Shown in pieces: positions 13,125 through 24,491 of a stretch of 32,802 nucleotides of DNA; the first letter of the stretch is position 1, and every line of letters starts with the position of its first letter. The DNA is taken from NCBI GenBank assembly GCA_031402315.1, contig JANNSF010000200.1:1-32802 (forward strand), read 5' to 3'. Source of the DNA: a bacterium. GTDB taxonomy: Bacteria > CLD3 > SB21. The notes under the pieces are model-generated. The model was not told the DNA's origin and made no database searches. It worked only from the letters and a program-made list of their open reading frames with translations. Both the position numbers and the translations under genes were made by a program.

Positions 13125-14231
13125 ATGATTGCGGCGCAACTTCATCCACAGATAATAGCTCAAAAAATAAAGGTTTGGGTTTTGGCGCCGTATTTGGTTC
13201 ATCACGATATCAATATCGACCACTATTACGATTTCAGTCAGAGTATTGCCGAATTTACGCAAACGTTTAAGCAGCTTAATCTCGATTGGCAATGGCAACC
13301 GGTCACGGTGGGTAATTACAAAGATGTAATTGATGAAATTGTTCAGGAGCAGATGGTGAAGCATTGCAATCCTGTTATACTCAATCTTTGCGATGGGGAT
13401 GAAGTCAACGGAACACCGGGAATTTCTGTGATCAAGTATCTTGTCAAAAAAGGCCTTCTCTTTACCGGTTCGGATGAATATTTTTATGACGTGACGACGT
13501 CGAAGATATCGATGAAAAATGCTTTTGATAAGGCCAAAGTTCCAACACCCAAGTGGAAAGCCATTCTGAATGCCAGTGACAATCATTTGTCCGACCTTTT
13601 TGATCGAATGGGTTCGCCGATTATTCTCAAGCCGTCCATATCGGGGGGCAGTATGGGGGTTGGTATCAAAAATGTGGTTTATAGTCCGGAACAACTCGAA
13701 GCGCAAATGCAGTTGATGTTCAAGGGTTACAGAGGCTGGCAATTGGCCATAGACGGGCTTGTCGCGGAGGAATTTATTAATGGTCCGGAGTTTACGGTTT
13801 TTATTGTGGGAAATCATGATAAGCCGGACCAGGCGATTATTTATCCTCCGGTCGAAAGAGTTTTCCATGACAGTCTGCCTGAACATGAAAAATTTTTATC
13901 GTTTGACCGGCTTTGGGAAATCTATGAAGAAGAGAAGCCGATGCCCAATGAGGAAAATTTCTACGAGTACGCTATTCCCGATATGAAGCTTCATGCGGCC
14001 ATAAAGCAAATCGCCTGGGATGCTTACGTCGCCGTGAAGGGTATGGGTTATACAAGAATTGATATCCGTGTCGATAAAGAAACGGGAAGACTTTATGTCC
14101 TAGAAGTCAATGCGCAGTGCGGTATCAGCGAGGATGAAGACTATACAAGCATTGGCGCCATCCTGAAGTTTGCCAATACATCCTTTACGGAATTGGTAGT
14201 ACAAATAATCAATAACAGTCTAAATCGTTAG
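13125..14231 (+). CDS. ATP-grasp domain protein, D-Ala-D-Ala-ligase-like fold (unknown substrate)
   Basis: ILKPSISGGSMGVGIKNVVYSPEQL resembles the ATP-grasp core (Ddl FVKPANLGSSVG). VAEEFINGPEFTVFIVGN matches E..I.GRE.. A C-terminal GYTRIDIRVDKETGRLYVLEVNAQCG matches R.D......G..Y.LE.NT.PG. Paralogous to the N-terminal 300 aa of the next gene. Confidence 0.75.
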   Translation: MIAAQLHPQIIAQKIKVWVLAPYLVHHDINIDHYYDFSQSIAEFTQTFKQLNLDWQWQPVTVGNYKDVIDEIVQEQMVKHCNPVILNLCDGDEVNGTPGISVIKYLVKKGLLFTGSDEYFYDVTTSKISMKNAFDKAKVPTPKWKAILNASDNHLSDLFDRMGSPIILKPSISGGSMGVGIKNVVYSPEQLEAQMQLMFKGYRGWQLAIDGLVAEEFINGPEFTVFIVGNHDKPDQAIIYPPVERVFHDSLPEHEKFLSFDRLWEIYEEEKPMPNEENFYEYAIPDMKLHAAIKQIAWDAYVAVKGMGYTRIDIRVDKETGRLYVLEVNAQCGISEDEDYTSIGAILKFANTSFTELVVQIINNSLNR

Positions 14232-14258: not shown

Positions 14259-15692
14259 ATGAAAATATGTGTTTTGCAACCGGACTATTCCACCACGTCG
14301 GTTGATTATAAAAATTACGATCCGCCACGCCGATTTGAACACTTATGGCCGGATGCAGAAATCGACAATATTTTCCTCAACAAACTGACCACGTATAAGC
14401 AGCTACTCGCATTGAAGTCAAAGGGCTATGATATTTTTGTTAATCTTTGCGAAGGGTATCTGGAATGGGAAGTGCCATCGATCGACGTTATCTATACGAT
14501 GGAACTTCTAAATTTGCCTTTTACCGGTCCGACGAGTGCTTTGTACGATCCACCTAAAGCTCTAATGAAGTACGTCGCGTATTGCGCAGGCATCAAAACG
14601 CCTCCGTATACGCTGATTACAGCAACCAGTAATCTTGAGAAGGAATGCCAACACCTTCGTTATCCACTGTTTGTAAAGCCTTCAAAAGCCGGCGACAGTC
14701 TTGGGGTGGATGCACTTTCATTGGTGAAGAATTTCGGGCAATTGCAAAAGAAGGTGAAAAGCCTTTTACCGGAATACGGGGAATTGCTGGTCGAAGAATA
14801 TATTGCGGGAAGGGAATTTACGGTAATGGTTGCGGCCAATACCGACGGAAAAACCAGTCGAAGTTTTAAGCCGGTGGAGTATATTTTTCCCGAGGGGAAC
14901 CAATTTAAAACGTACGCCCTCAAGACATCCGAGCTTCATCCCAATGCGAATATACCGTGCGCGGACCCTGCGATTGAAAGCGAACTTCGGTTAGCCGCCG
15001 AAAAAATTTTCAAAGGTTTTAGCGGAGTAGGTTACGCACGCTTGGATTTTAGAATGAACGAGCAGCGGGAACTGTACTTTCTTGAGATTAATTTTACATG
15101 CTCCGTTTTTTATGCCGATGGTTATCAAGGCTCGGCCGACTACATTTTGGAGCACGACGGATTTGGCCAGTCCAATTTTTTGCATCACATCGTCGAGGAA
15201 GGCATGTCGCGATTTCGCCGAAAACAAAAGAAGTACGTTATCAAGGGTAATGCGATCGCGGGTTATGGTATTTACGCGACGCAGAAAATTTTTCCGGGCG
15301 AAGTGGTCTTTGTAGGGGAAGGCCGAGCGCAACGCATCGTGACAAAACGATTTGTCGAAAAAAATTGGAATAAGGAAGAACAGGAAAGTTTTAGGCGGTA
15401 CGCGTATCCGGTCAGTCATGAGATTTATATTTTGTGGGCGGATGATCCGCAAGAGTGGGCGCCTCAAAATCATTGCTGTGAACCGAATACGGCTTACGAC
15501 GGCCTTAATGTTTATGCCATCAAAGAGGTTGCTACGGGTGACGAACTGACGCTAAATTATGCTCAATTTTTGAATGAGGGAATGGAGCCGTTTGACTGCA
15601 AATGCGGCGCGGCCAATTGCATCGGAAAAATCGAAGGTGTCCACAGCAATACAGTGATCGAACGAGAAAAGAAATTGAAAGAAACCGTGTAA
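14259..15692 (+). CDS. fusion protein: N-terminal Ddl-like ATP-grasp ligase domain + C-terminal SET-domain (protein-lysine methyltransferase fold) with a post-SET Cys cluster
   Basis: The ATP-grasp part contains LFVKPSKAGDSLGVDALSL, EEYIAGREFTVMV and GYARLDFRMNEQRELYFLEINFTC. The SET part contains GYGIYATQKIFPGEVVFVGEG (the GxG...GE block), NHCCEPN (the NH[SC]C.PN pseudoknot motif), ELTLNY (the catalytic Tyr block) and CKCGAANCIGK (post-SET CxCxxxxC). Confidence 0.75.
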   Translation: MKICVLQPDYSTTSVDYKNYDPPRRFEHLWPDAEIDNIFLNKLTTYKQLLALKSKGYDIFVNLCEGYLEWEVPSIDVIYTMELLNLPFTGPTSALYDPPKALMKYVAYCAGIKTPPYTLITATSNLEKECQHLRYPLFVKPSKAGDSLGVDALSLVKNFGQLQKKVKSLLPEYGELLVEEYIAGREFTVMVAANTDGKTSRSFKPVEYIFPEGNQFKTYALKTSELHPNANIPCADPAIESELRLAAEKIFKGFSGVGYARLDFRMNEQRELYFLEINFTCSVFYADGYQGSADYILEHDGFGQSNFLHHIVEEGMSRFRRKQKKYVIKGNAIAGYGIYATQKIFPGEVVFVGEGRAQRIVTKRFVEKNWNKEEQESFRRYAYPVSHEIYILWADDPQEWAPQNHCCEPNTAYDGLNVYAIKEVATGDELTLNYAQFLNEGMEPFDCKCGAANCIGKIEGVHSNTVIEREKKLKETV

Positions 15693-15706: not shown

Positions 15707-16672
15707 TTATTTCTTTTCGTCAGACCGAATCGTTTTCGCGGTGCGAATCTTTCGGATGAGCTTGATGAAAATCCATATTCCAAAAACCATCAAAACAAAT
15801 ACAGGTAGGCCCGCAATAATGAATGTAATGGTGCCTCCGAGAACATTTGCAAACCCGTAAAAGCCTTCTGAAAATCCATTTCCGATCGTGGCCCAGAATC
15901 CGCCGCTGGAACTAACGGCCACCGGATAATGTTCATGAAAGCGAACGGTGATCGTAGAAAGCCCGGTCTGATCAAGCAAATACTTTTTGCGCCCTTCAAA
16001 CTGCTCAATTTCTCCACGAATTCGGCTAAGTTCACGCTGTACTTCTAGAATTTCCGAAATGCTTCCCGTTCGCCGGAGAATATCCTGTACTTGTTTCTCT
16101 TCCAAAAGTTTGTTTCTCAGACGCGCTTCCAGATCATAAAATTCCTCTGTCACATCCTGACCCATCACGCTTTCTCGTTCCAGTTTATTGCCGAGTTTCT
16201 TGATCTCTGCAAACGCCGTTTCAAATTTTTCGGAAGGTATGCGCAGGACCCAAACTCCTGCCTTCACATTCTCGTAGGGGATTTCGGTCGCGGAGCTTGC
16301 AATAAATCCGCCCCAATCGTCCATTAATTTTTGAAGGCGAACTGCACAATCGTCGTATTTGTCAACTTCAAATCCAAGTTCACCCGTCTTAATAACAACA
16401 CGGGCTCTGGATTGAATTTGAGATATTTGGGTGAGTTGCGAATTGCGGCCATAGGATCCGGATTTGTCGGCTTGAAGAATGGCTTCGCTGAGTGCGACAG
16501 GTTTCATGTCCTTATTTGCCGAAATGGAGCGATTTGCTTTCGAAGCTTTCGCACTCCCGGCCACCGCATGCTCGTCGGTGACTCGGACGCTTGAAATGTT
16601 TTCGGATTTATTTCCACAAGACATCGAAACGATCAGCACAACTATAGCGGCGAATTTGACAAACAATTTCAT
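15707..16672 (-). CDS. DUF4349-like lipoprotein with coiled-coil region and C-terminal transmembrane anchor
   Basis: ATG at 16672 with an AGGAGG RBS. Lipoprotein signal MKLFVKFAAIVVLIVSMSCG. The central part is coiled-coil (EEFYDLEARLRNKLLEEKQVQDIL...). The C-terminal hydrophobic helix is followed by a basic tail, as in DUF4349 proteins. Confidence 0.6.
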   Translation of the reverse strand: MKLFVKFAAIVVLIVSMSCGNKSENISSVRVTDEHAVAGSAKASKANRSISANKDMKPVALSEAILQADKSGSYGRNSQLTQISQIQSRARVVIKTGELGFEVDKYDDCAVRLQKLMDDWGGFIASSATEIPYENVKAGVWVLRIPSEKFETAFAEIKKLGNKLERESVMGQDVTEEFYDLEARLRNKLLEEKQVQDILRRTGSISEILEVQRELSRIRGEIEQFEGRKKYLLDQTGLSTITVRFHEHYPVAVSSSGGFWATIGNGFSEGFYGFANVLGGTITFIIAGLPVFVLMVFGIWIFIKLIRKIRTAKTIRSDEKK

Positions 16673-16796
16673 CGTGTCCTCCTGTCGGATTGGTTGCGTT
16701 ACTCCAAATTGCCTCCCATCGTGACAATAATCAAGGGTGATTTTGGTCTTTTTTTGATAGATTGAAGTGTTAGATTTAAACCCTATTGAAAATCAA

Positions 16797-17924
16797 ATGG
16801 TATCTAAAATTCTTGATGTCCCCAAAGTCCTTGGGTTAGGCCTATTCATCCTGTCGTCGTTGGGGTGCGGTAAAAAAACATTGCACGAGGAATTAACCAC
16901 GATCTCCAATTCTGAATTCTCGAGAGTCATCCATGACTTTTCGGAATCTGCCGGTGATTTCCATAGCGACAATCTCATATCCAATGAGGCATCCTATCTT
17001 CAAGTAGCCGCCCAACTCCGGAAAATGAACATTCGGGGCGGGGCGTATATTGGCGTCGGCCCGGAACAGAATTTTTCTTACATCGCGATCTTGAAACCGG
17101 AGTACGCTTTTATTCTGGACATTAGGCGGGATAATTTGATGATCCATCTTTTTTATAAGGCGCTCTTTGAAATGTCGGAGGATCGCTTTTCGTTTTTGTG
17201 TTTGCTTTTTGGAAAAAAGCCGAGGCACGCGGCTCCGGATTCAGCAAGCCTGCAATCGCTCCTGGACTCGCTGGAGCGGCCGCCGTCACAGGAAGACAAA
17301 TGGGAGGCCTCCCACCGTGATATCGAAGAACACTTGGCCCAATATGGAGTCCCGTTAGATACGGCCGACTTAACAAAAATTTTTCGGATCCATGCCGAAT
17401 TTGTCAGGTCAGGAACCGCGCTAACCTATAAGCTACGTGATAAGCCGGCCCGATCATTTTATCCGACCTACCGGGAACTTGCGCTTGAAAAGAACGAAGA
17501 AGGCAAAAGCGATGGATTTCTTGTGAACGAGCAAAATTACAAATACGTGCGCCGCATGCAGCAACAGAATCGAATCATTCCGCTTGTGGGTGATTTTGCG
17601 GGGAAACGTACGCTCTTGGAGATTGGCCGCTATCTTGAAGAGAAGAAACTCACCGTATCCGCATTCTACACTTCCAATGTCGAAGCTTATCTCTTTGAAG
17701 ATTCTTTATTTGAACGGTTTGCCCAAAATGCGGTTTCATTACCTCGGTCCAAAAACAGTATGTTCATAAGGAGTTGTTTTAGATCCGCGATCGGTGCGCC
17801 TCACCCTCGGAGCAAACCACGCTATCACAGCGTTCAATTACTTCAGAACATGAATTCTTTCTCCGAAGTTTTCGCCCGAGGTACCTACAAAACATATGAG
17901 GATTTGGTTTTTGATCGTGAATGA
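16797..17924 (+). CDS. hypothetical (lipo)protein with a GVGPEQNF motif, family unknown
   Basis: ATG at 16797 gives MVSKILDVPKVLGLGLFILSSLGCGKK, a signal with a Cys near the cleavage site. The track's upstream start at 16767 is GTG without a signal. 375 aa, no family recognised. Confidence 0.6.
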   Translation: MVSKILDVPKVLGLGLFILSSLGCGKKTLHEELTTISNSEFSRVIHDFSESAGDFHSDNLISNEASYLQVAAQLRKMNIRGGAYIGVGPEQNFSYIAILKPEYAFILDIRRDNLMIHLFYKALFEMSEDRFSFLCLLFGKKPRHAAPDSASLQSLLDSLERPPSQEDKWEASHRDIEEHLAQYGVPLDTADLTKIFRIHAEFVRSGTALTYKLRDKPARSFYPTYRELALEKNEEGKSDGFLVNEQNYKYVRRMQQQNRIIPLVGDFAGKRTLLEIGRYLEEKKLTVSAFYTSNVEAYLFEDSLFERFAQNAVSLPRSKNSMFIRSCFRSAIGAPHPRSKPRYHSVQLLQNMNSFSEVFARGTYKTYEDLVFDRE

Positions 17925-18015
17925 TTTTGACCTTTGGGCGAATTCGTAGTTGCAATCCTATTGGAATCTTACTAACTTGATTTCATTATACAAAGAGTAA
18001 AATTTCGGAGGTACC

Positions 18016-18459
18016 ATGAAAAAATTATTTCTATTAATGTTTGGTGTAAGCCTGTTTGCTCAGCAGCAGGTGACCATGATAAAATTTGGTTCCAGTTCGG
18101 TTGAAATTCGCTGCTCCAACAAAGCGGCATCCGGCAATTACTATCGAAATATAGAAATTCGCGCAAAAGATGCGCCGGTGCGCATATTTTTTATGAAGAA
18201 CGATAAATCGACCGTTGACATTACAGGCCAGACTATTTTCGTTTCCTATGAAGCCGATGCGAAAGGCGAAGAAAGTTGCGGCATTACCGTTGATCAGACG
18301 AAAAATTTTTGGGGAAGCAAAGCGATATACTTTTTGTCCATTACGGTTCCCAATCGCTATGTCGATATCAATGGAGAACAGCGTGAAGTTGTAGGCAATC
18401 TGAATCTGGACTATCTGGGCCTCCCATTTTGGGTAACCCGGAACGTCGCAAAATCGTAA
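18016..18459 (+). CDS. small secreted hypothetical protein
   Basis: GGAGG RBS, signal peptide MKKLFLLMFGVSLFAQQ, 147 aa. Confidence 0.55.
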   Translation: MKKLFLLMFGVSLFAQQQVTMIKFGSSSVEIRCSNKAASGNYYRNIEIRAKDAPVRIFFMKNDKSTVDITGQTIFVSYEADAKGEESCGITVDQTKNFWGSKAIYFLSITVPNRYVDINGEQREVVGNLNLDYLGLPFWVTRNVAKS

Positions 18460-18573
18460 TCTCGAAAACTACGTCCATCGACATATAGTCCCCTGAGTGA
18501 ATCTTTTTTTAGGGAATTATTTTGGTCTATTCGTGTTACACTTGCGTATCTCTTTTGAATTAAACATTGGCAA

Positions 18574-19314
18574 ATGAAATCTAAGCTAATCCTATGTTTT
18601 GGTCTGTGTGTGACCGCCGGTTTTTTTGTGAGTGCCTGCGACAAAGAGCGTATTCAGGAAGACGAATTAGTTACAAAAGGCCGGGAGTTATTTCGCGACG
18701 TCAAGTTTTCCACCAATCGTGACCAGTCCTGTGAGACATGCCATCCCAACGGGCATATGGATAACCGGAAGTGGCACTTTCCTGCAATTCACGGATTCAC
18801 GAATGGCAAACCGGATTCTCTGAGAACCTTGACGCTGTGGGGAGTCGCGGAGCAAGAGACGTACCTGTGGACCAATCGACGAATGACGCTTGCCGCAATT
18901 ACCAGACTTTATGCCGATACCATAATGGGCGGGGGCGCAACCAATGAGGAAATCGCGGCGCTTGTTGCCTATCAACGCTCGCTGGTATTTCCAAAAAATC
19001 CTAATCTTTCATCGGATGGAAAATTGACGCCGGCTCAGCAACGCGGCAAGGAGCTTTATTTAACCGATATAAAGGGCAATTGTGCACCCTGTCACATTCC
19101 GCCGGTCTATAGCAGCCCAAGTCCTAAGAACATTGGGACGGGCGGCACGTTCAAGACCAGTGGCATTCGCGCCATTTATTCTATGGCACCGTATTTTCAT
19201 GATGGGAGGGCCAAGACGCTACGGGAAGTTATTGACTTTTATGCGGGTCAATTGTTGGTCAACCTCTCACCCGATGAGCGTGAGGATTTAGTTGAATACT
19301 TAAAGACATTGTAA
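18574..19314 (+). CDS. short di-heme cytochrome c peroxidase/MauG-family lipoprotein
   Basis: Lipoprotein signal ...FFVSAC. Two heme c motifs, CETCH and CAPCH, about 120 aa apart. YFHDGRAKTLREVIDFY is the conserved CCP-family C-terminal block. Confidence 0.75.
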   Translation: MKSKLILCFGLCVTAGFFVSACDKERIQEDELVTKGRELFRDVKFSTNRDQSCETCHPNGHMDNRKWHFPAIHGFTNGKPDSLRTLTLWGVAEQETYLWTNRRMTLAAITRLYADTIMGGGATNEEIAALVAYQRSLVFPKNPNLSSDGKLTPAQQRGKELYLTDIKGNCAPCHIPPVYSSPSPKNIGTGGTFKTSGIRAIYSMAPYFHDGRAKTLREVIDFYAGQLLVNLSPDEREDLVEYLKTL

Positions 19315-19342
19315 AATTCAGAGGACATTAGGAAGAGGTAAT

Positions 19343-20116
19343 ATGAGAAGATTTTTTTTATCATTGAGTGTTGTTTGTACAGTTGCTTTTTCGGCGTGTG
19401 ATAAAGAGCGCGTGAAAGAGGATCCTCTGATTACGGAAGGACGAACGCTTTTTAACGACACGAAATTTGACTTGGCCGGTAAATCGTCGTGTGGTACTTG
19501 TCATCCGGGCGGAGACATGGACAACAAGAAATGGTTGTTGCCAACCTTTACCGAGTCTTTAGCGACTCCGACACTCTTCGGGGTATCCGATACGCCGCCG
19601 TACGGCTGGACACGGAATGGCGTCAACGATATTAGGACGTTTTCAAGGTTTGTTATCGAAACGATTTGGGGCAGCACCGCAACGGGCCATGAACTGGATG
19701 CTCTTGTGGCGTATCAGGCCTCGCTTCGAATCCCATCTAATCCATCACTTTACAATGAGAATATGAATTCTGCGCAACTTCGTGGGAAAAACGTATTTGA
19801 AAATCAAGGCCAGTGTTCCGCATGTCATTCCGGAACCAATTTAACCGGGAATTTTAAAGTCAGGATTCATCCTGTAAATAAGGTCATCGACGTTCCATCG
19901 CTTCGTTGGATTTTCGCCACTTCGCCATATTTTCATGATCATTCAAAGCCAACCTTGCGTTCGGTCGTTGACTACTATGCCGATTCAATCTCAACGGCCC
20001 AAATGACGAATTGGCTATGGAATGGAGGGACTAAAGTAACGCCCAAAGCTATTTTTGATATTACTTTGACGGAACAAGAACGAATTGATCTGGTCGAATT
20101 TCTTAAAACTTTATAA
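19343..20116 (+). CDS. short di-heme cytochrome c peroxidase/MauG-family lipoprotein (paralogue of upstream gene)
   Basis: Lipoprotein signal ...VAFSAC. Heme motifs CGTCH and CSACH. Contains YFHDHSKPTLRSVVDYYA. Collinear with the 18574 gene (ALVAYQ(R/A)SL, LRGK/QRGKELY blocks). Confidence 0.75.
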   Translation: MRRFFLSLSVVCTVAFSACDKERVKEDPLITEGRTLFNDTKFDLAGKSSCGTCHPGGDMDNKKWLLPTFTESLATPTLFGVSDTPPYGWTRNGVNDIRTFSRFVIETIWGSTATGHELDALVAYQASLRIPSNPSLYNENMNSAQLRGKNVFENQGQCSACHSGTNLTGNFKVRIHPVNKVIDVPSLRWIFATSPYFHDHSKPTLRSVVDYYADSISTAQMTNWLWNGGTKVTPKAIFDITLTEQERIDLVEFLKTL

Positions 20117-20127
20117 CGGAAACTTTC

Positions 20128-21330
20128 ATGAAACGATTTTTTTACTTTTTACTTCTGTCATCCTTCGCCTTGGCGCAGGAAGAGACCAATGCGGAAGTGA
20201 CTGGAACTGAGCCTGGCGGCGATAATCGCGTTGGCATTGGCGGCATTTTAGACATTGCACATGCGGAAGGTAATCGCAAATCAACCTCAAACGCCAACAC
20301 GCTGGGCGATAACAATTTTAATAATACGCGGGCGCTTCTACGATTCAATTTTGAACACCAAGATAAACTGCGCGCGGACATTGAAGTTCAGTTCGACGAC
20401 GGTTCGGAAGATAAGGTTCGATTGCTCGGCGCTTTTGTGACAATTTTTGACGTTCCAAATTCTTACGTAAACTTCATGGTTGGAAAAATTCCGACGCCGT
20501 TTGGCAATTTTGCAAAGCGCGAAGCTTCGGATGTCAATCCTCTTATTGGTCAGCCGCTTCTGCGCCAGTATCGAACAAGCTTGGATTGGAACAATCTCTG
20601 GGACAATAGAGAACAGTTGATTCTAAAGCAGAAACGTCGCACGCATCACGGTACAATTCCGGCAAACGGTCTTCGCGGCGCCACACCGACGATTTATGAT
20701 GCTCGCTGGGATTTTGGAGTGGAAGTCTTTGGAAATGCGTCGATCGTTGACTACCAGTTTGCGGTCACCGAAGGTTCCGTGTCCAATCCGGAGGCCGATC
20801 AAAACAAAGGAAAACAGTTCCTAGGACGGATTGGGATCAATCCTATCCCGGGCTTAAAAATAGGGGTATCCGGAGCGATGAATCCTTATCTCTCCACCGC
20901 AGATCCACAGCGTTTGCTGGAGGCCGGCAAGGGCAAAGGAGAGTTTAAGCAAGTTGCCTACGGTGTCGATTTGGAAGCGAGCTATCGTTATTTGATTGTA
21001 TTTGGCGAATTTGTAAAGAGCAAATGGGATGCAACGACGAAGGAAAAAGAATTGTCCAATTGGAGTTTTTATGTGGATGGGAAATACAAAATTCTTCCCA
21101 GGCTATATATATCGGGACGTTATGATAGGATGAATTTCAGCAAGATATTGAATCCGGATACACGAAAGAAAGAAGGTTGGGATTACAACGTTCAGCGTTA
21201 CGAAGCCGGCTTAGGCTTCCGAGTTACAACGGATGCGACATTGAAGTTGGTCGAACAATGGACGCAATTTGAAGATTTTGCAATACCATCCATCAAGCTT
21301 ACGGCCGTACAGTTATCCGTACCGTTTTAA
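20128..21330 (+). CDS. outer-membrane beta-barrel protein / putative porin
   Basis: Starts 12 bp after the upstream stop. Signal peptide MKRFFYFLLLSSFALAQ. 400 aa with many amphipathic strands and a terminal ...LSVPF (C-terminal Phe). Confidence 0.6.
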   Translation: MKRFFYFLLLSSFALAQEETNAEVTGTEPGGDNRVGIGGILDIAHAEGNRKSTSNANTLGDNNFNNTRALLRFNFEHQDKLRADIEVQFDDGSEDKVRLLGAFVTIFDVPNSYVNFMVGKIPTPFGNFAKREASDVNPLIGQPLLRQYRTSLDWNNLWDNREQLILKQKRRTHHGTIPANGLRGATPTIYDARWDFGVEVFGNASIVDYQFAVTEGSVSNPEADQNKGKQFLGRIGINPIPGLKIGVSGAMNPYLSTADPQRLLEAGKGKGEFKQVAYGVDLEASYRYLIVFGEFVKSKWDATTKEKELSNWSFYVDGKYKILPRLYISGRYDRMNFSKILNPDTRKKEGWDYNVQRYEAGLGFRVTTDATLKLVEQWTQFEDFAIPSIKLTAVQLSVPF

Positions 21331-21346
21331 ATCAGGAGCAACCGCG

Positions 21347-22054
21347 ATGAAAATATTATTAATAGCATCTGTACTAGTGATGGCCGGACTTTTTGGATGG
21401 CCGACGAAATTTTTTGAATACGCCGAAGGTACCCCATCGGAGGCGATTTTACTTCCCGCGGACGGGAAAGTTTTCGGTAAAGTGTTTTTTTCAAAAGCGG
21501 CAGCGGCCACGAATCGTTCGTCCAAAGGGCTTTATGGCAAATCCACGTCGCGCCTGACGCAAGCCGGCGGTGCTCAATCGGATAAGCGGGCCGTGGTTTA
21601 TATTGTAAAGGTTCCTGGAAAATTTAATGCGCCCCAAAGCCATCCGGCCATGCGTCAGAAAAATGTATCCATCGTTCCGCGCGTATTACCTATTATAGCC
21701 GGCACTACCGTTGATTTTCCAAATGAAGACGAAATTTTTCACAATATTTTTTCATTATCGCCCGGTAAAAATTTTGACTTAGGGCGTTACGCCAAGGGTG
21801 TCTCGAAATCAGTGACATTTTCAACGCTGGGGAATGTTAAGGTATTTTGTGATATCCATTCGAATATGGGTGGCACAATCCTCGTTCTACAGAATCCATA
21901 CTTCACGATAACTCAAGGTGATGGAAGCTATACATTAAGCGGAGTACCTACCGGTACTTTTGACCTTACGGCCTGGAGTGAAAGCGGGGGCTCACAAACG
22001 CAGAAGATAACCGTGGCATCCGGGGCTGGAACAGAAACTACATTTTCCTTTTAA
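21347..22054 (+). CDS. secreted cupredoxin-like (type 1 copper) domain protein with C-terminal carboxypeptidase-regulatory-like beta-sandwich
   Basis: ATG at 21347 after AGGAG; the track's upstream extension from 21269 overlaps the porin gene. Signal peptide MKILLIASVLVMAGLF. Candidate T1 Cu ligands are His in IFHNIFS and C-x-x-H-x-x-M in KVFCDIHSNMGGTILV (cf. amicyanin/pseudoazurin). The tail YTLSGVPTGTFDLTAW is CarbopepD_reg-like. Confidence 0.55.
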   Translation: MKILLIASVLVMAGLFGWPTKFFEYAEGTPSEAILLPADGKVFGKVFFSKAAAATNRSSKGLYGKSTSRLTQAGGAQSDKRAVVYIVKVPGKFNAPQSHPAMRQKNVSIVPRVLPIIAGTTVDFPNEDEIFHNIFSLSPGKNFDLGRYAKGVSKSVTFSTLGNVKVFCDIHSNMGGTILVLQNPYFTITQGDGSYTLSGVPTGTFDLTAWSESGGSQTQKITVASGAGTETTFSF

Positions 22055-22111
22055 AGGCATCGGATTCGACAAACCTCAAGTCTGCCTCCTTAACAAGTTC
22101 TTACAGTTTTC

Positions 22112-22816
22112 ATGAGTCCAGAAATTCTGCATGAAACCATGGACATTATTGTAGTCCATAAACCATCCGGAATGCTCACCATCCCTGATCGATACAACCC
22201 CTTGCTTGAAAATCTTTCCGATATTTTGCGCGAACGGTACGACGAACTTTTTGTCGTGCATCGAATTGACCGCGAAACAAGCGGAGTCGTAGTTTTTGCC
22301 CGCCACGCCCAATCGCACAGATATCTGAATGGACTTTTTGAGCATCATCAAGTTAAGAAAGAATATCGGGCACTTGTTTGCGGTACCACGGACGAGCAAG
22401 GAGAAATTGATTTACCGATCGTGGAGATTAAGCCGGGTATAATGGGGATCAATAAGCGGGAGGGGAAGCCATCGAAGACGCTCTACCGTCGTCTGGAGAG
22501 TTTTGGTGAATATTCCCTGATGGAAGTGACACCGCTCAGTGGAAGGACACACCAAATCCGTGTCCATTTCAAAGCCATTGGCCACCCGCTTGCTGTCGAT
22601 TCCATTTACAATCCGGATGGTTCCATTTATCTATCTCATTTCAAGAAACGTTATAAGCACACAAAAGGAATGGATGAAAAACCGATCATTTCCAGGCTCA
22701 CTCTCCATGCCAATTCTATAGAATTCTTGAGCCCCCAAGGGGAAAACCTCAGATTCGAAGCCCCGTTGCCGAAGGACTTCAGCGGAGTTCTTAAGCAATT
22801 GCGTAAATGGACTTAG
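22112..22816 (+). CDS. RluA-family pseudouridine synthase
   Basis: VVHKPSGMLTIP...; the catalytic Asp motif VHRIDRETSGVVVFAR (the HRLD..TSG. hallmark); 234 aa. Confidence 0.85.
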   Translation: MSPEILHETMDIIVVHKPSGMLTIPDRYNPLLENLSDILRERYDELFVVHRIDRETSGVVVFARHAQSHRYLNGLFEHHQVKKEYRALVCGTTDEQGEIDLPIVEIKPGIMGINKREGKPSKTLYRRLESFGEYSLMEVTPLSGRTHQIRVHFKAIGHPLAVDSIYNPDGSIYLSHFKKRYKHTKGMDEKPIISRLTLHANSIEFLSPQGENLRFEAPLPKDFSGVLKQLRKWT

Positions 22817-23988
22817 AGATGATTCCCGGCGGCAAATCCCGATGACCATGCCCATTGAAAATTATGTCCGCCAAGATGACCGGTCACATCGACGACTTCG
22901 CCGATAAAATACAATCCCTTCTGTTTCTTTGATTCCATGGTCTTCGATGAAAGTTCGTCGGTATTTACCCCACCTTTTGTTACCTCCGCTTTATCAAAGC
23001 CCTCCGTACCTGCAGGACTCAGTTTCCACCGATGGATGGAATCGCTGATTTGTTGAATTTCCGCCTTTGACAAATGGGGTAGTGTTTTTTGAATTTCTAA
23101 TTTTTTGGCCAACGCTTGGGCCAGGCTCTTAGGGAAAAAATTATTAAAAAAAGCCGAAAGCAATACGGCATCCGATTTTCTTTTGTTGATCTCCGTTTCA
23201 ATTGACTTGTCGGGTAGGAGATTGATGGTAATCGCTTCCTGTGTATTCCAATAAGACGATATTTGAAGTATGGCCGGACCGCTCAAACCCTTGTGTGTGA
23301 ATAGGAAATTCTCACGGAACCGGACGTTCAAGCAGGATACTTCGATTTCCGCAGAAACGCCCGAGATCTCCGAGAAAAGCGATTTTTCAGCCGGTCTCCA
23401 CAAGAGTGGAACCAATGCAGGCTCCGGAGGAATCAGGGTGTGGCCAAATTGTTTCGCAACGCGGTATCCAAGATCCGTAGCACCCATTTTCGGGATCGAA
23501 AGGCCACCCGTTGCGATGACCATGGTTTGTGATAAGTACATATTCTTTGCCGTTGTCAATTCAAAGCGCCCGGCGTGACGAATTTTTGAAACGGACTCAT
23601 TGAGCATAATACTCACGCCGGATCGATGACATTCCAATAATAGCAGATCCACAATAGCTTGCGATTTCTCATCGCAAAAAAGTTGACCCAATTTTTTTTC
23701 GTGATAGTGAATACCGTGTTTCTTCACCAGCGCAATGAATTCGGAAGGGGGATACTGGGTAAGAGCCGATTTGCAGAAATGAGGGTTATTCGAAATAAAA
23801 TGGTGTGGTCCGGAATGGAGATTTGTGAAATTGCACCGACCACCTCCTGAAATCAGAATCTTTTTTCCGACTTTCTCCGCATGATCAAGTACAACAACGG
23901 ACAATCCGCGTTTAGCTGCTGTAATTGCACAAAAGAGCCCGGCAGCTCCGGCTCCCACAATGATAACATCGTGGTTAAAGGACGGCAC
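22813..23988 (-). CDS. HI0933/BaiN-family FAD-dependent flavoprotein (aminoacetone-oxidase-like, NAD(P)/FAD-binding)
   Basis: GTG start at 23988 overlaps the upstream TAG by 1 nt. DVIIVGAGAAGLFCAI...KILISGGGRCNFTN dinucleotide motifs are typical of the HI0933 family. 391 aa. Confidence 0.8.
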   Translation of the reverse strand: MPSFNHDVIIVGAGAAGLFCAITAAKRGLSVVVLDHAEKVGKKILISGGGRCNFTNLHSGPHHFISNNPHFCKSALTQYPPSEFIALVKKHGIHYHEKKLGQLFCDEKSQAIVDLLLLECHRSGVSIMLNESVSKIRHAGRFELTTAKNMYLSQTMVIATGGLSIPKMGATDLGYRVAKQFGHTLIPPEPALVPLLWRPAEKSLFSEISGVSAEIEVSCLNVRFRENFLFTHKGLSGPAILQISSYWNTQEAITINLLPDKSIETEINKRKSDAVLLSAFFNNFFPKSLAQALAKKLEIQKTLPHLSKAEIQQISDSIHRWKLSPAGTEGFDKAEVTKGGVNTDELSSKTMESKKQKGLYFIGEVVDVTGHLGGHNFQWAWSSGFAAGNHL

Positions 23989-24407
23989 TATTCGATGGAG
24001 AACGAGTTCGAATAAACGGTGTCCGGGTCAGCTTTTCCGCTAAAAAAAACGACAAATCGATATCTATAGACACCGGGCTTACTTACATAGATACTCTCCT
24101 TATAATTAGAGCCTGCGGGAATCGCTAGAAATTCAACTTGGTTGGAACAACTTGCTTGATACCATAATTTCCATGTCCCATCGACTTTGCGATCACGAAG
24201 AAATAGCAATTCTTTCTCACAAGATTCTATAAGCGCGGCATCGGATGTTCGATTATACAGAACTACTTCTGTTGGATCCGAACTATAAAAATAGTCGGCT
24301 GTCGTAAGGACCGTAAAGGAATCTTTTTTGACGGGGTCTGACGTTTTGAAACGGTCCTCACAAGAAAGCAAAATAAAGCACGATACGATGAGTAAAAAAG
24401 TTTTCAT
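23988..24407 (-). CDS. hypothetical lipoprotein
   Basis: ATG at 24407 is preceded by AAGGAAGGG. MKTFLLIVSCFILLSCEDR is a lipoprotein signal. The track's upstream extension to 24458 adds a non-signal leader. Confidence 0.6.
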   Translation of the reverse strand: MKTFLLIVSCFILLSCEDRFKTSDPVKKDSFTVLTTADYFYSSDPTEVVLYNRTSDAALIESCEKELLFLRDRKVDGTWKLWYQASCSNQVEFLAIPAGSNYKESIYVSKPGVYRYRFVVFFSGKADPDTVYSNSFSIE

Positions 24408-24491
24408 GTCCCTTCCTTTCATTAGATTAGTTTTCGAAAAGAATGAAAATAGAAACAATTAAAGCTAACGAATCATTTTGCATAGGGCAAA

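Follow-up and report, generated by a model that had tools for sequence, protein, structure and literature searches.

Positions 18574–22054 of contig JANNSF010000200.1 (assembly GCA_031402315.1) contain four closely spaced open reading frames on the + strand, which encode two di-haem cytochromes, an outer-membrane barrel and a blue-copper protein. In this text, we use the term window to refer to the whole 32,802-nucleotide (nt) stretch that was analysed. The first gene, dh1 (18574..19314), encodes a compact di-haem c-type cytochrome lipoprotein of 246 residues, predicted to be of the MauG type, and the second, dh2 (19343..20116), encodes a paralogous di-haem lipoprotein of 257 residues. They are followed by the gene of a predicted 16-strand outer-membrane porin of 400 residues (20128..21330), which we call the barrel, and by that of a 235-residue blue-copper (type-1-like) cupredoxin combined with a CarboxypepD_reg-like beta-sandwich (21347..22054). 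A preliminary description of this DNA had reported four same-strand genes with gaps of 29, 12 and 17 bp; the genes and the tight spacing are as described, but the gap values are start-minus-end differences, each off by one, and the true gaps are 28, 11 and 16 nt. The ATG of the cupredoxin gene at 21347 sits within a longer TTG open reading frame beginning at 21269, and the 235-residue product is the version found in the public record (P0001).

The comparative set was obtained from a scan, with one genome per species, for homologues of the cupredoxin, and comprises more than 585 loci with a homologue. The order dh1–dh2–barrel–cupredoxin is kept in ten loci (the window, L001–L004, L006 and L081–L084), with 54–72% protein identity. 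The only genes common to the window and the related loci are the four operon genes, a gene for a 147-residue protein and a 3HCDH gene, while the other flanks differ. Because the order recurs with different flanks, the four-gene arrangement is more than a chance one. Every complete related locus has a dh2-type orthologue, and the apparently short first gene of L084 is a truncated gene call of dh1. In the latter locus, the ferrous iron transport genes feoA-feoB lie divergently, right upstream of dh1 (L084:2781-5057). Three of the loci (L001, L005 and L006) carry the label Bacteroidota, and a Por_Secre_tail domain of the type IX secretion system (T9SS) is encoded by a neighbouring gene; the host of the operon is probably a Bacteroidota-like member of the Fibrobacteres–Chlorobi–Bacteroidetes (FCB) group.

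Each di-haem protein has exactly two CxxCH motifs, which are CETCH 53-57 (nt 18730-18744) and CAPCH 170-174 (nt 19081-19095) in dh1, and CGTCH 50-54 (nt 19490-19504) and CSACH 158-162 (nt 19814-19828) in dh2. Both motifs are invariant across the compact di-haem family, for which conservation was assessed over 18 members, and so is the lipobox cysteine (VSAC22 followed by DKER in dh1; FSAC19 followed by DKER in dh2). The two proteins are approximately 41–42% identical, and the earlier characterization of them as paralogous lipoproteins with two haem motifs each is borne out.

dh1 and dh2 belong to the bacterial di-haem cytochrome c peroxidase (CCP)/MauG superfamily, as judged by family score, profile and fold. 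Against Pfam CCP_MauG (PF03150; cut-off 25.6 bits), dh1 scores 52.3 bits and dh2 alone scores 22.1 bits, under the cut-off. A profile of the family, built from 34 relatives and searched against the PDB, matches all solved members of the superfamily (4e-47 to 2e-26), including MbnH (6e1c, 4e-47), CCPs (5e-44 to approximately 1e-31), the gamma subunit of hydrazine synthase (HZS-gamma, 1e-39) and MauG (6e-33). The best single-sequence PDB match is HZS-gamma (5c2v chain C, 1.8e-13), and the AlphaFold2 (AF2) model of dh1 (pLDDT 83) has MbnH, YhjA, HZS-gamma and CCPs as its top Foldseek matches. The best NCBIfam matches of the two proteins are to MbnH (TIGR04039; 61.6 and 67.4 bits, cut-off 362.85 bits) and to hydrazine synthase gamma (NF052341; 58.8 and 44.7 bits, cut-off 625 bits). 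An MbnH- or MauG-like family match, for which the preliminary description had suggested a search, thus exists in that MbnH is the best NCBIfam match, but its scores are far below the cut-off, and the scores likewise do not place the two proteins among the equivalogs of MbnH, MauG or HZS-gamma. The same description had named c551/c552-type monofunctional cytochromes as the identity that would contradict its assignment. Such proteins give only marginal NCBIfam matches (E values of 0.04 and 4e-4), compared with the strong superfamily matches, and none is present among the 34 PDB matches with E <= 0.001. Di-haem proteins of the TsdA/SoxAX type were also rejected, as the SoxA/SoxX matches are no better than 4e-4 and 6e-3, and the profile search matched neither a TsdA nor a SoxA structure.

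Within the superfamily, His/Tyr versus His/Met ligation discriminates MauG-type enzymes (MauG, MbnH, BthA), which have low-potential electron-transfer haems and poor peroxidase activity, from the canonical enzymes (PMC11892367). Where the Nitrosomonas enzyme (Met258, by counting) and the Shewanella and YhjA enzymes have the Met that ligates the electron-transfer haem, the aligned residue of the dh family is Tyr. This residue (Tyr223 of dh1, nt 19240-19242; Tyr212 of dh2, nt 19976-19978) is invariant in the 18 members and aligns with the Tyr of MbnH. The His/Met ligation of canonical bacterial CCPs is not found in dh1 or dh2, and we consider the two to be MauG-type proteins with a predicted His/Tyr electron-transfer haem, and not canonical peroxidases. 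The inter-haem Trp (Trp99 in dh1, Trp89 in dh2) is conserved without exception in the 18 family members and also occurs in 14 of 16 distant relatives. A conserved Trp-rich insert (SISTAQMTNWLWNGG) follows Tyr212 in dh2.

The proteins are clearly shorter than canonical CCPs of approximately 330 residues, as had been noted before, and this is because two loops are deleted. One is the N-domain loop of approximately 30 residues that carries the NPxEM sequence in CCPs and MbnH, which is absent in all 18 members of the short family, and the other is a C-domain loop of 25–35 residues. In addition, the Ca-site Asn of RN(T/A)P is replaced, the corresponding sequences being RTLT in dh1 and ATPT in dh2. 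With this combination of features, dh1 and dh2 fit neither the textbook peroxidase nor the textbook MauG. The two lipoproteins may sit at the inner membrane, the outer membrane or the cell surface, and in the scheme favored below they would face the periplasm.

A word-indexed search yielded approximately 28 clusters of 240-270-residue proteins, all from metagenome-assembled genomes. Below these compact clusters, identity falls sharply to about 30%, and the matching proteins are longer, some with a YVTN beta-propeller fusion. In an exhaustive search with a hidden Markov model (HMM), only two 50%-identity representatives have E < 1e-90, one dh1-type and the other dh2-type, and four further short proteins follow at approximately 1e-42 to 1e-46. 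The same search returned 8,076 proteins at E <= 1e-10, and the best 150 (P0293-P0436 among them) include many of about 550–700 residues, in which the C-terminal ~220 residues match the compact di-haem domain in one stretch. The N-terminal ~380 residues of P0300 are repetitive and do not match the di-haem profile, and related proteins are annotated as YVTN beta-propeller fusions. This architecture, a propeller-like part with a compact di-haem domain, recalls HZS beta-gamma fusions, yet it occurs outside anammox contexts. Because many longer proteins carry a matching C-terminal domain, the compact domain is common in fused form, with the stand-alone lipoprotein pair representing a small offshoot.

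The barrel protein has a signal peptide ending in ...FALA (before QEE) and a C-terminus of ...LSVPF. Its AF2 model (pLDDT 81, pTM 0.80) is a porin-type barrel with an inward loop of approximately 75 residues, and the protein has the 16 strands, inward loop and C-terminal aromatic residue of Gram-negative 16-strand porins. The stretch that is most conserved across phyla, GKIP..FG.F..R....NPLIG.PL, is located in the inner loop (residues 119-144; GKIP..FGNF..R....NPLIG.PL in the window). The protein matches no Pfam or NCBIfam family, and has no Pfam porin match above the cut-off. The preliminary description had proposed an outer-membrane barrel that places the system at the outer membrane; the barrel is present, and the role suggested by the modelled fold is narrower, namely that of a solute porin of ordinary size with 16 strands, which is neither a large conduit nor a mere anchor. 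We describe it as OprP-like because it resembles the phosphate-specific porins OprP and OprO (PDB 2o4v), but the identity is only 15%, and the signature of the present family is a different conserved loop motif, NPLIG.PL.

The cupredoxin begins with a hydrophobic signal or anchor, and contains the motifs EIFH132NIFS and FC168DIH171SNM174. These provide the candidate copper ligands His132 (nt 21740-21742) and Cys168-x2-His171-x2-Met174 (nt 21848-21868). The preliminary description had made its copper-site assignment depend on the conservation of these residues in homologues. All four are invariant, and Asn133 nearly so, in 22 homologues with identity down to 38%. The C-x2-H-x2-M spacing is that of a short, amicyanin-like loop. 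In the PDB, the cupredoxin profile matches the C-terminal cupredoxin domain of NirK (1.3e-6), the blue copper protein 5fc9 (2e-4), plastocyanins and amicyanins, and the protein alone scores 15.2 bits against Pfam Copper-bind, under the cut-off of 21.2 bits. Having a His...Cys-xn-His-xn-Met set on a cupredoxin fold, it is a putative type-1 copper protein.

The CarboxypepD_reg-like tail noted earlier is recognizable, although the match is weak (28.8 bits for the whole protein, cut-off 32.3 bits), and the C-terminal part covers profile positions 28-79. In a chimera to which two N-terminal strands were added, the score rose from 31.4 to 36.4 bits and the coverage from 31-79 to 16-79, which is a small gain. 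The cupredoxin may be inserted within the CarboxypepD_reg sandwich, such that the strands GKVFGKVFFSK...RAVVYIVKV (residues 36-92) complete residues 176-235.

The barrel and cupredoxin genes have a much wider distribution than the di-haem genes. Locus-level counts were taken over the best 80 of the more than 585 loci. The barrel gene adjoins the cupredoxin gene in 72 of the 80, and di-haem genes are found only in the closest five or six (L001-L006). The porin-cupredoxin pair is an independent, widespread unit, usually without a di-haem partner. In 68 of the 80 loci, the directly adjacent gene on the same strand encodes a histidine kinase or HAMP protein, and these proteins have mutually homologous periplasmic N-terminal sensors of the dCache_3/CHASE4 type. 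The kinase gene is commonly followed by that of a sigma54-dependent regulator (for example, L020:4772-9796 and L010:5827-11204), and most of the loci without a kinase belong to the di-haem clade or are cut contigs. Some loci carry hybrid kinases or an OmpR-type regulator (L045) instead. These kinase-linked loci resemble a signalling cassette of three or four genes, and are found in Acidobacteriota, Ignavibacteriota/Bacteroidota, Gemmatimonadota and Lysobacterales (Gammaproteobacteria). In acidobacterial loci, the region past the sigma54 regulator contains one to three small Cupredoxin_1-like proteins, a monohaem cytochrome c lipoprotein of approximately 150 residues and a DUF5777 outer-membrane barrel (L053:10038-12648, L047:9887-11748, L072:9809-11717, L018:9797-11094); these downstream genes may constitute a regulated electron-transfer or copper set.

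A literature search found nothing specific on the gene combination of the operon. The porin-cupredoxin(-kinase) cassette was not found in that search either, has no curated family, and appears to be undescribed. The components of the operon come from known superfamilies, and the di-haem pair forms a new subfamily, in which known features are combined in a novel way.

Upstream of dh1 lies the gene of a secreted 147-residue protein (18016..18459, + strand), homologues of which precede the operon in six of the ten related loci (L001-L003, L081-L083). The protein has no match in Pfam or NCBIfam; Cys33, Trp99 and a KNDK motif are invariant. A hairpin with a T-run is located 3' of the homologue in L081, L001 and L002. 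Because such terminator-like hairpins follow the 147-residue homologues in three loci, the operon probably starts at dh1, with the upstream gene forming a separate transcription unit. In the window itself, a promoter and terminator scan of 17800-22300 performed no better than on shuffled sequence. The DNA upstream of dh1 has no match to a sigma54 promoter, the cupredoxin gene is not followed by a terminator (z = -0.08), and an alignment of upstream DNA contained no conserved motif.

Relative to the same six loci, the window has a block of genes inserted between the 3HCDH gene and the 147-residue gene (15707-17924). Among the inserted genes are those of a membrane protein with DUF4349 (15707-16672, on the minus strand) and of a lipoprotein of the DUF7790/LIC_10091 family (16767-17924), as well as two ATP-grasp genes. 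One of the latter (14259-15692) encodes an unusual fusion of an ATP-grasp (D-Ala-D-Ala-ligase-like) domain with a C-terminal SET domain, and adjoins the other (13125-14231). Elsewhere in the window, at 763-2217, is a secreted protein in which an F5/8 type C domain occurs together with DM9 repeats and a farnesoic-acid-methyltransferase-like domain; the DM9 repeats and the methyltransferase-like domain are better known in arthropods.

The preliminary description had interpreted the operon cautiously, and as a whole that interpretation is supported. The reading that we favor, although with some reserve and as one that could well prove wrong, is that the operon is a redox module of the cell envelope in which electrons would pass in the periplasm from the cupredoxin to the di-haem pair, and from there to a small oxidant admitted by the porin. 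In this scheme, the OprP-like barrel would admit a small solute to the periplasm, which could be an anion or an oxidant, for instance H2O2. The hydrophobic N-terminal segment of the blue-copper protein, together with the Ig-like sandwich, would keep it at the membrane, where it would serve as a one-electron carrier. The lipid-anchored dh1 and dh2 probably act as a heteromeric pair, with electrons from the copper protein entering through the putative His/Tyr-ligated C-terminal haem and the inter-haem Trp. The oxidant would be reduced at the N-terminal haem, in a manner nearer to the use of the di-haem fold in HZS-gamma than to that of a textbook CCP.

Several observations are consistent with such a module. 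The tight four-gene cluster is kept in order across ten loci with differing flanks, the di-haem proteins are superfamily members with invariant CxxCH motifs and inter-haem Trp, and they share with HZS-gamma a compact form that lacks the CCP distal loop. The cupredoxin has the complete type-1 ligand set, with amicyanin-like spacing and the His-Asn pair, and the barrel is by its fold a solute porin. Cupredoxins such as pseudoazurin and azurin are physiological donors to bacterial CCPs. Since the cupredoxin family mostly occurs without di-haem genes, the protein is unlikely to be a dedicated maturation substrate, and the acidobacterial pair loci, because they hold a monohaem cytochrome c and further small cupredoxins, suggest an electron-transfer setting.

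Other observations weigh against this scheme. H2O2 needs no dedicated porin, and no reductant for the cupredoxin was found encoded in the window. Peroxide chemistry cannot be taken for granted either, because dh1 and dh2 lack the NPxEM loop of CCPs as well as the Ca-site Asn. Furthermore, the Tyr ligand marks a MauG-type, low-potential haem and a poor peroxidase (PMC11892367), to which a high-potential blue-copper protein would be a thermodynamically awkward donor unless the haems reach high-valent states.

The same Tyr is the starting point for an account that we regard as rather unlikely, in which H2O2 or O2 would bring dh1, dh2 or both to a bis-Fe(IV)-type state, and the activated enzyme would oxidize a residue on the cupredoxin, on the conserved inner loop of the porin or on the 147-residue protein. 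MbnH forms kynurenine in MbnP, a copper protein, alongside the outer-membrane transporter MbnT, and the operon parallels this system in having a di-haem enzyme with a copper protein and an outer-membrane barrel. The Tyr occupies the electron-transfer-haem ligand position in 18/18 members, as in MbnH and not as in canonical CCPs, which have Met; MbnH is the best match in both NCBIfam and the PDB profile search (6e1c, 4e-47); and the conserved Trp-rich insert of dh2 follows the Tyr. However, the TIGR04039 scores are far under 362.85 bits, and the distal-pocket residues Gln103, Pro107 and Glu113 of MauG, named in PDB variant entries, would by homology presumably fall in the deleted loop. The cupredoxin carries the usual ligands of a type-1 site and does not resemble MbnP, and because hundreds of genomes keep the porin-cupredoxin pair without a di-haem gene nearby, the pair needs no di-haem enzyme.

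Alternatively, the pair would be a unit for the uptake and sensing of copper, or of another metal, that feeds a periplasmic kinase in most phyla. Here the di-haem proteins would replace the kinase link, and would control whether copper is present as Cu(I) or Cu(II), or give protection from oxidants that copper generates. The dCache_3/CHASE4-like kinase directly beside the pair in 68/80 loci, often with a sigma54 regulator next, points in this direction, as do the Cupredoxin_1 proteins, monohaem cytochrome c and DUF5777 barrel further along the acidobacterial loci. There is also a precedent, by likeness of gene content, in the curA operon (PMC3707914), and MbnH, the closest characterized relative of dh1 and dh2, is tied to copper homeostasis in the title of 6e1c. 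On the other hand, type-1 sites with His/Cys/His/Met ligands are buried and serve electron transfer, and are not typical of copper trafficking; genes for a kinase, a regulator, CopA, CopC/D, PCuAC or Sco were not found in the window; and there is no sigma54-type promoter upstream of dh1. We consider copper handling unlikely to be the function of this operon. A trans-outer-membrane conduit is far less probable still. In it, dh1 and dh2 would lie at the cell surface and, with the porin and the copper protein in the periplasm, make up a minimal porin-cytochrome system for electron exchange with Fe, Mn or another substrate outside the cell. An operon that encodes lipoprotein cytochromes together with a barrel and a periplasmic carrier does resemble MtrCAB, Cyc2 with rusticyanin offers a parallel, feoAB adjoins the operon in L084, and the probable FCB host belongs to a group in which lipoproteins are often surface-exposed. 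Nevertheless, the barrel has only 16 strands and its own inner loop of ~75 residues, so that there is no room inside for a protein or haem domain; it has no haem motif; and the membrane cannot be bridged because there are only two haems per protein. The surface-export signal of Bacteroidetes is K-(D/E)2 (PMC5080379), which the mature N-termini (C-D-K-E) resemble in part, but K-E-R differs from it.

A broader proposal, which we regard as doubtful, would connect the electron-transfer module with the kinase-linked loci. The porin and blue-copper protein would form an unrecognized, phylum-spanning envelope cassette for redox or metal sensing, with the state of the copper protein read by a periplasmic kinase in most lineages (Acidobacteriota, Ignavibacteriota/Bacteroidota, Gemmatimonadota and some Gammaproteobacteria). 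In the present operon, the cassette would be rewired to a new stand-alone, lipid-anchored di-haem pair of HZS-gamma-like/MauG-type character, with chemistry unlike that of the characterized CCP-family members. The porin-cupredoxin(-kinase) cassette occurs in hundreds of soil and sediment genomes, and neither the porin nor the cupredoxin has a curated family. If it is true that the copper protein feeds a histidine kinase, this would be a new kind of three-component signalling.

The CCP/MauG superfamily keeps giving new chemistry, as in MauG, MbnH, BthA and hydrazine synthase gamma. To this series the operon adds a minimal, duplicated and lipid-anchored form that combines a MauG-type Tyr, an HZS-gamma-like loss of the distal loop and a candidate type-1 copper partner, and it offers a compact system for asking what sets reactivity in the di-haem fold. 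Among the known systems, MbnH (6e1c) is the best profile and Foldseek match, and shares with dh1 and dh2 the superfamily, the fold, the position of the Tyr ligand and the inter-haem Trp. MbnH, MbnP and MbnT are likewise a di-haem enzyme encoded with a copper-binding protein and an outer-membrane barrel. In the present operon, however, there are two paralogues, both lipoproteins, instead of one enzyme; they are approximately 100 residues shorter, owing to the absence of the distal loop and of a loop in the C-domain; a predicted type-1 cupredoxin takes the place of MbnP as copper partner; and the barrel is a 16-strand porin rather than a TonB-dependent transporter. MbnP had no Pfam or NCBIfam match among the window open reading frames scanned, a scan that left out 23988-24458.

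HZS-gamma (5c2v chain C) is similar in a different respect, in that its N-domain likewise lacks the ~30-residue CCP distal loop and aligns straight through, and beta-propeller-fused di-haem proteins, reminiscent of the HZS beta-gamma fusions, are among the nearest relatives of dh1 outside the family. HZS-gamma differs in having Asn, not Tyr, at the ligand column, and dh1 and dh2 score only 45–59 bits against the cut-off of 625. No HZS alpha or beta genes were found in the window, and there is no anammox context. Canonical CCPs with a cupredoxin donor, such as Paracoccus CCP with pseudoazurin, share the di-haem fold, the Trp between the haems and a cupredoxin as a plausible redox partner. Compared with these enzymes, dh1 and dh2 have Tyr for Met, no NPxEM loop and a replaced Ca-site Asn, and they are lipid-anchored, duplicated and approximately 80 residues shorter.

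The closest likeness to the wider porin-cupredoxin-kinase loci is the copper-induced curA operon of Myxococcus xanthus, which encodes a cupredoxin, the kinase CorS, the sigma54 regulator CorR and a cytochrome c (PMC3707914). Both combine a cupredoxin, a HAMP histidine kinase, a sigma54 regulator and a cytochrome c, the kinases being likened by gene content. The published table of the curA operon has neither this porin family nor a CarboxypepD_reg-cupredoxin, and includes a multicopper oxidase and CopA. The window differs from both in having no kinase, and instead places the porin-cupredoxin pair directly behind dh1 and dh2.

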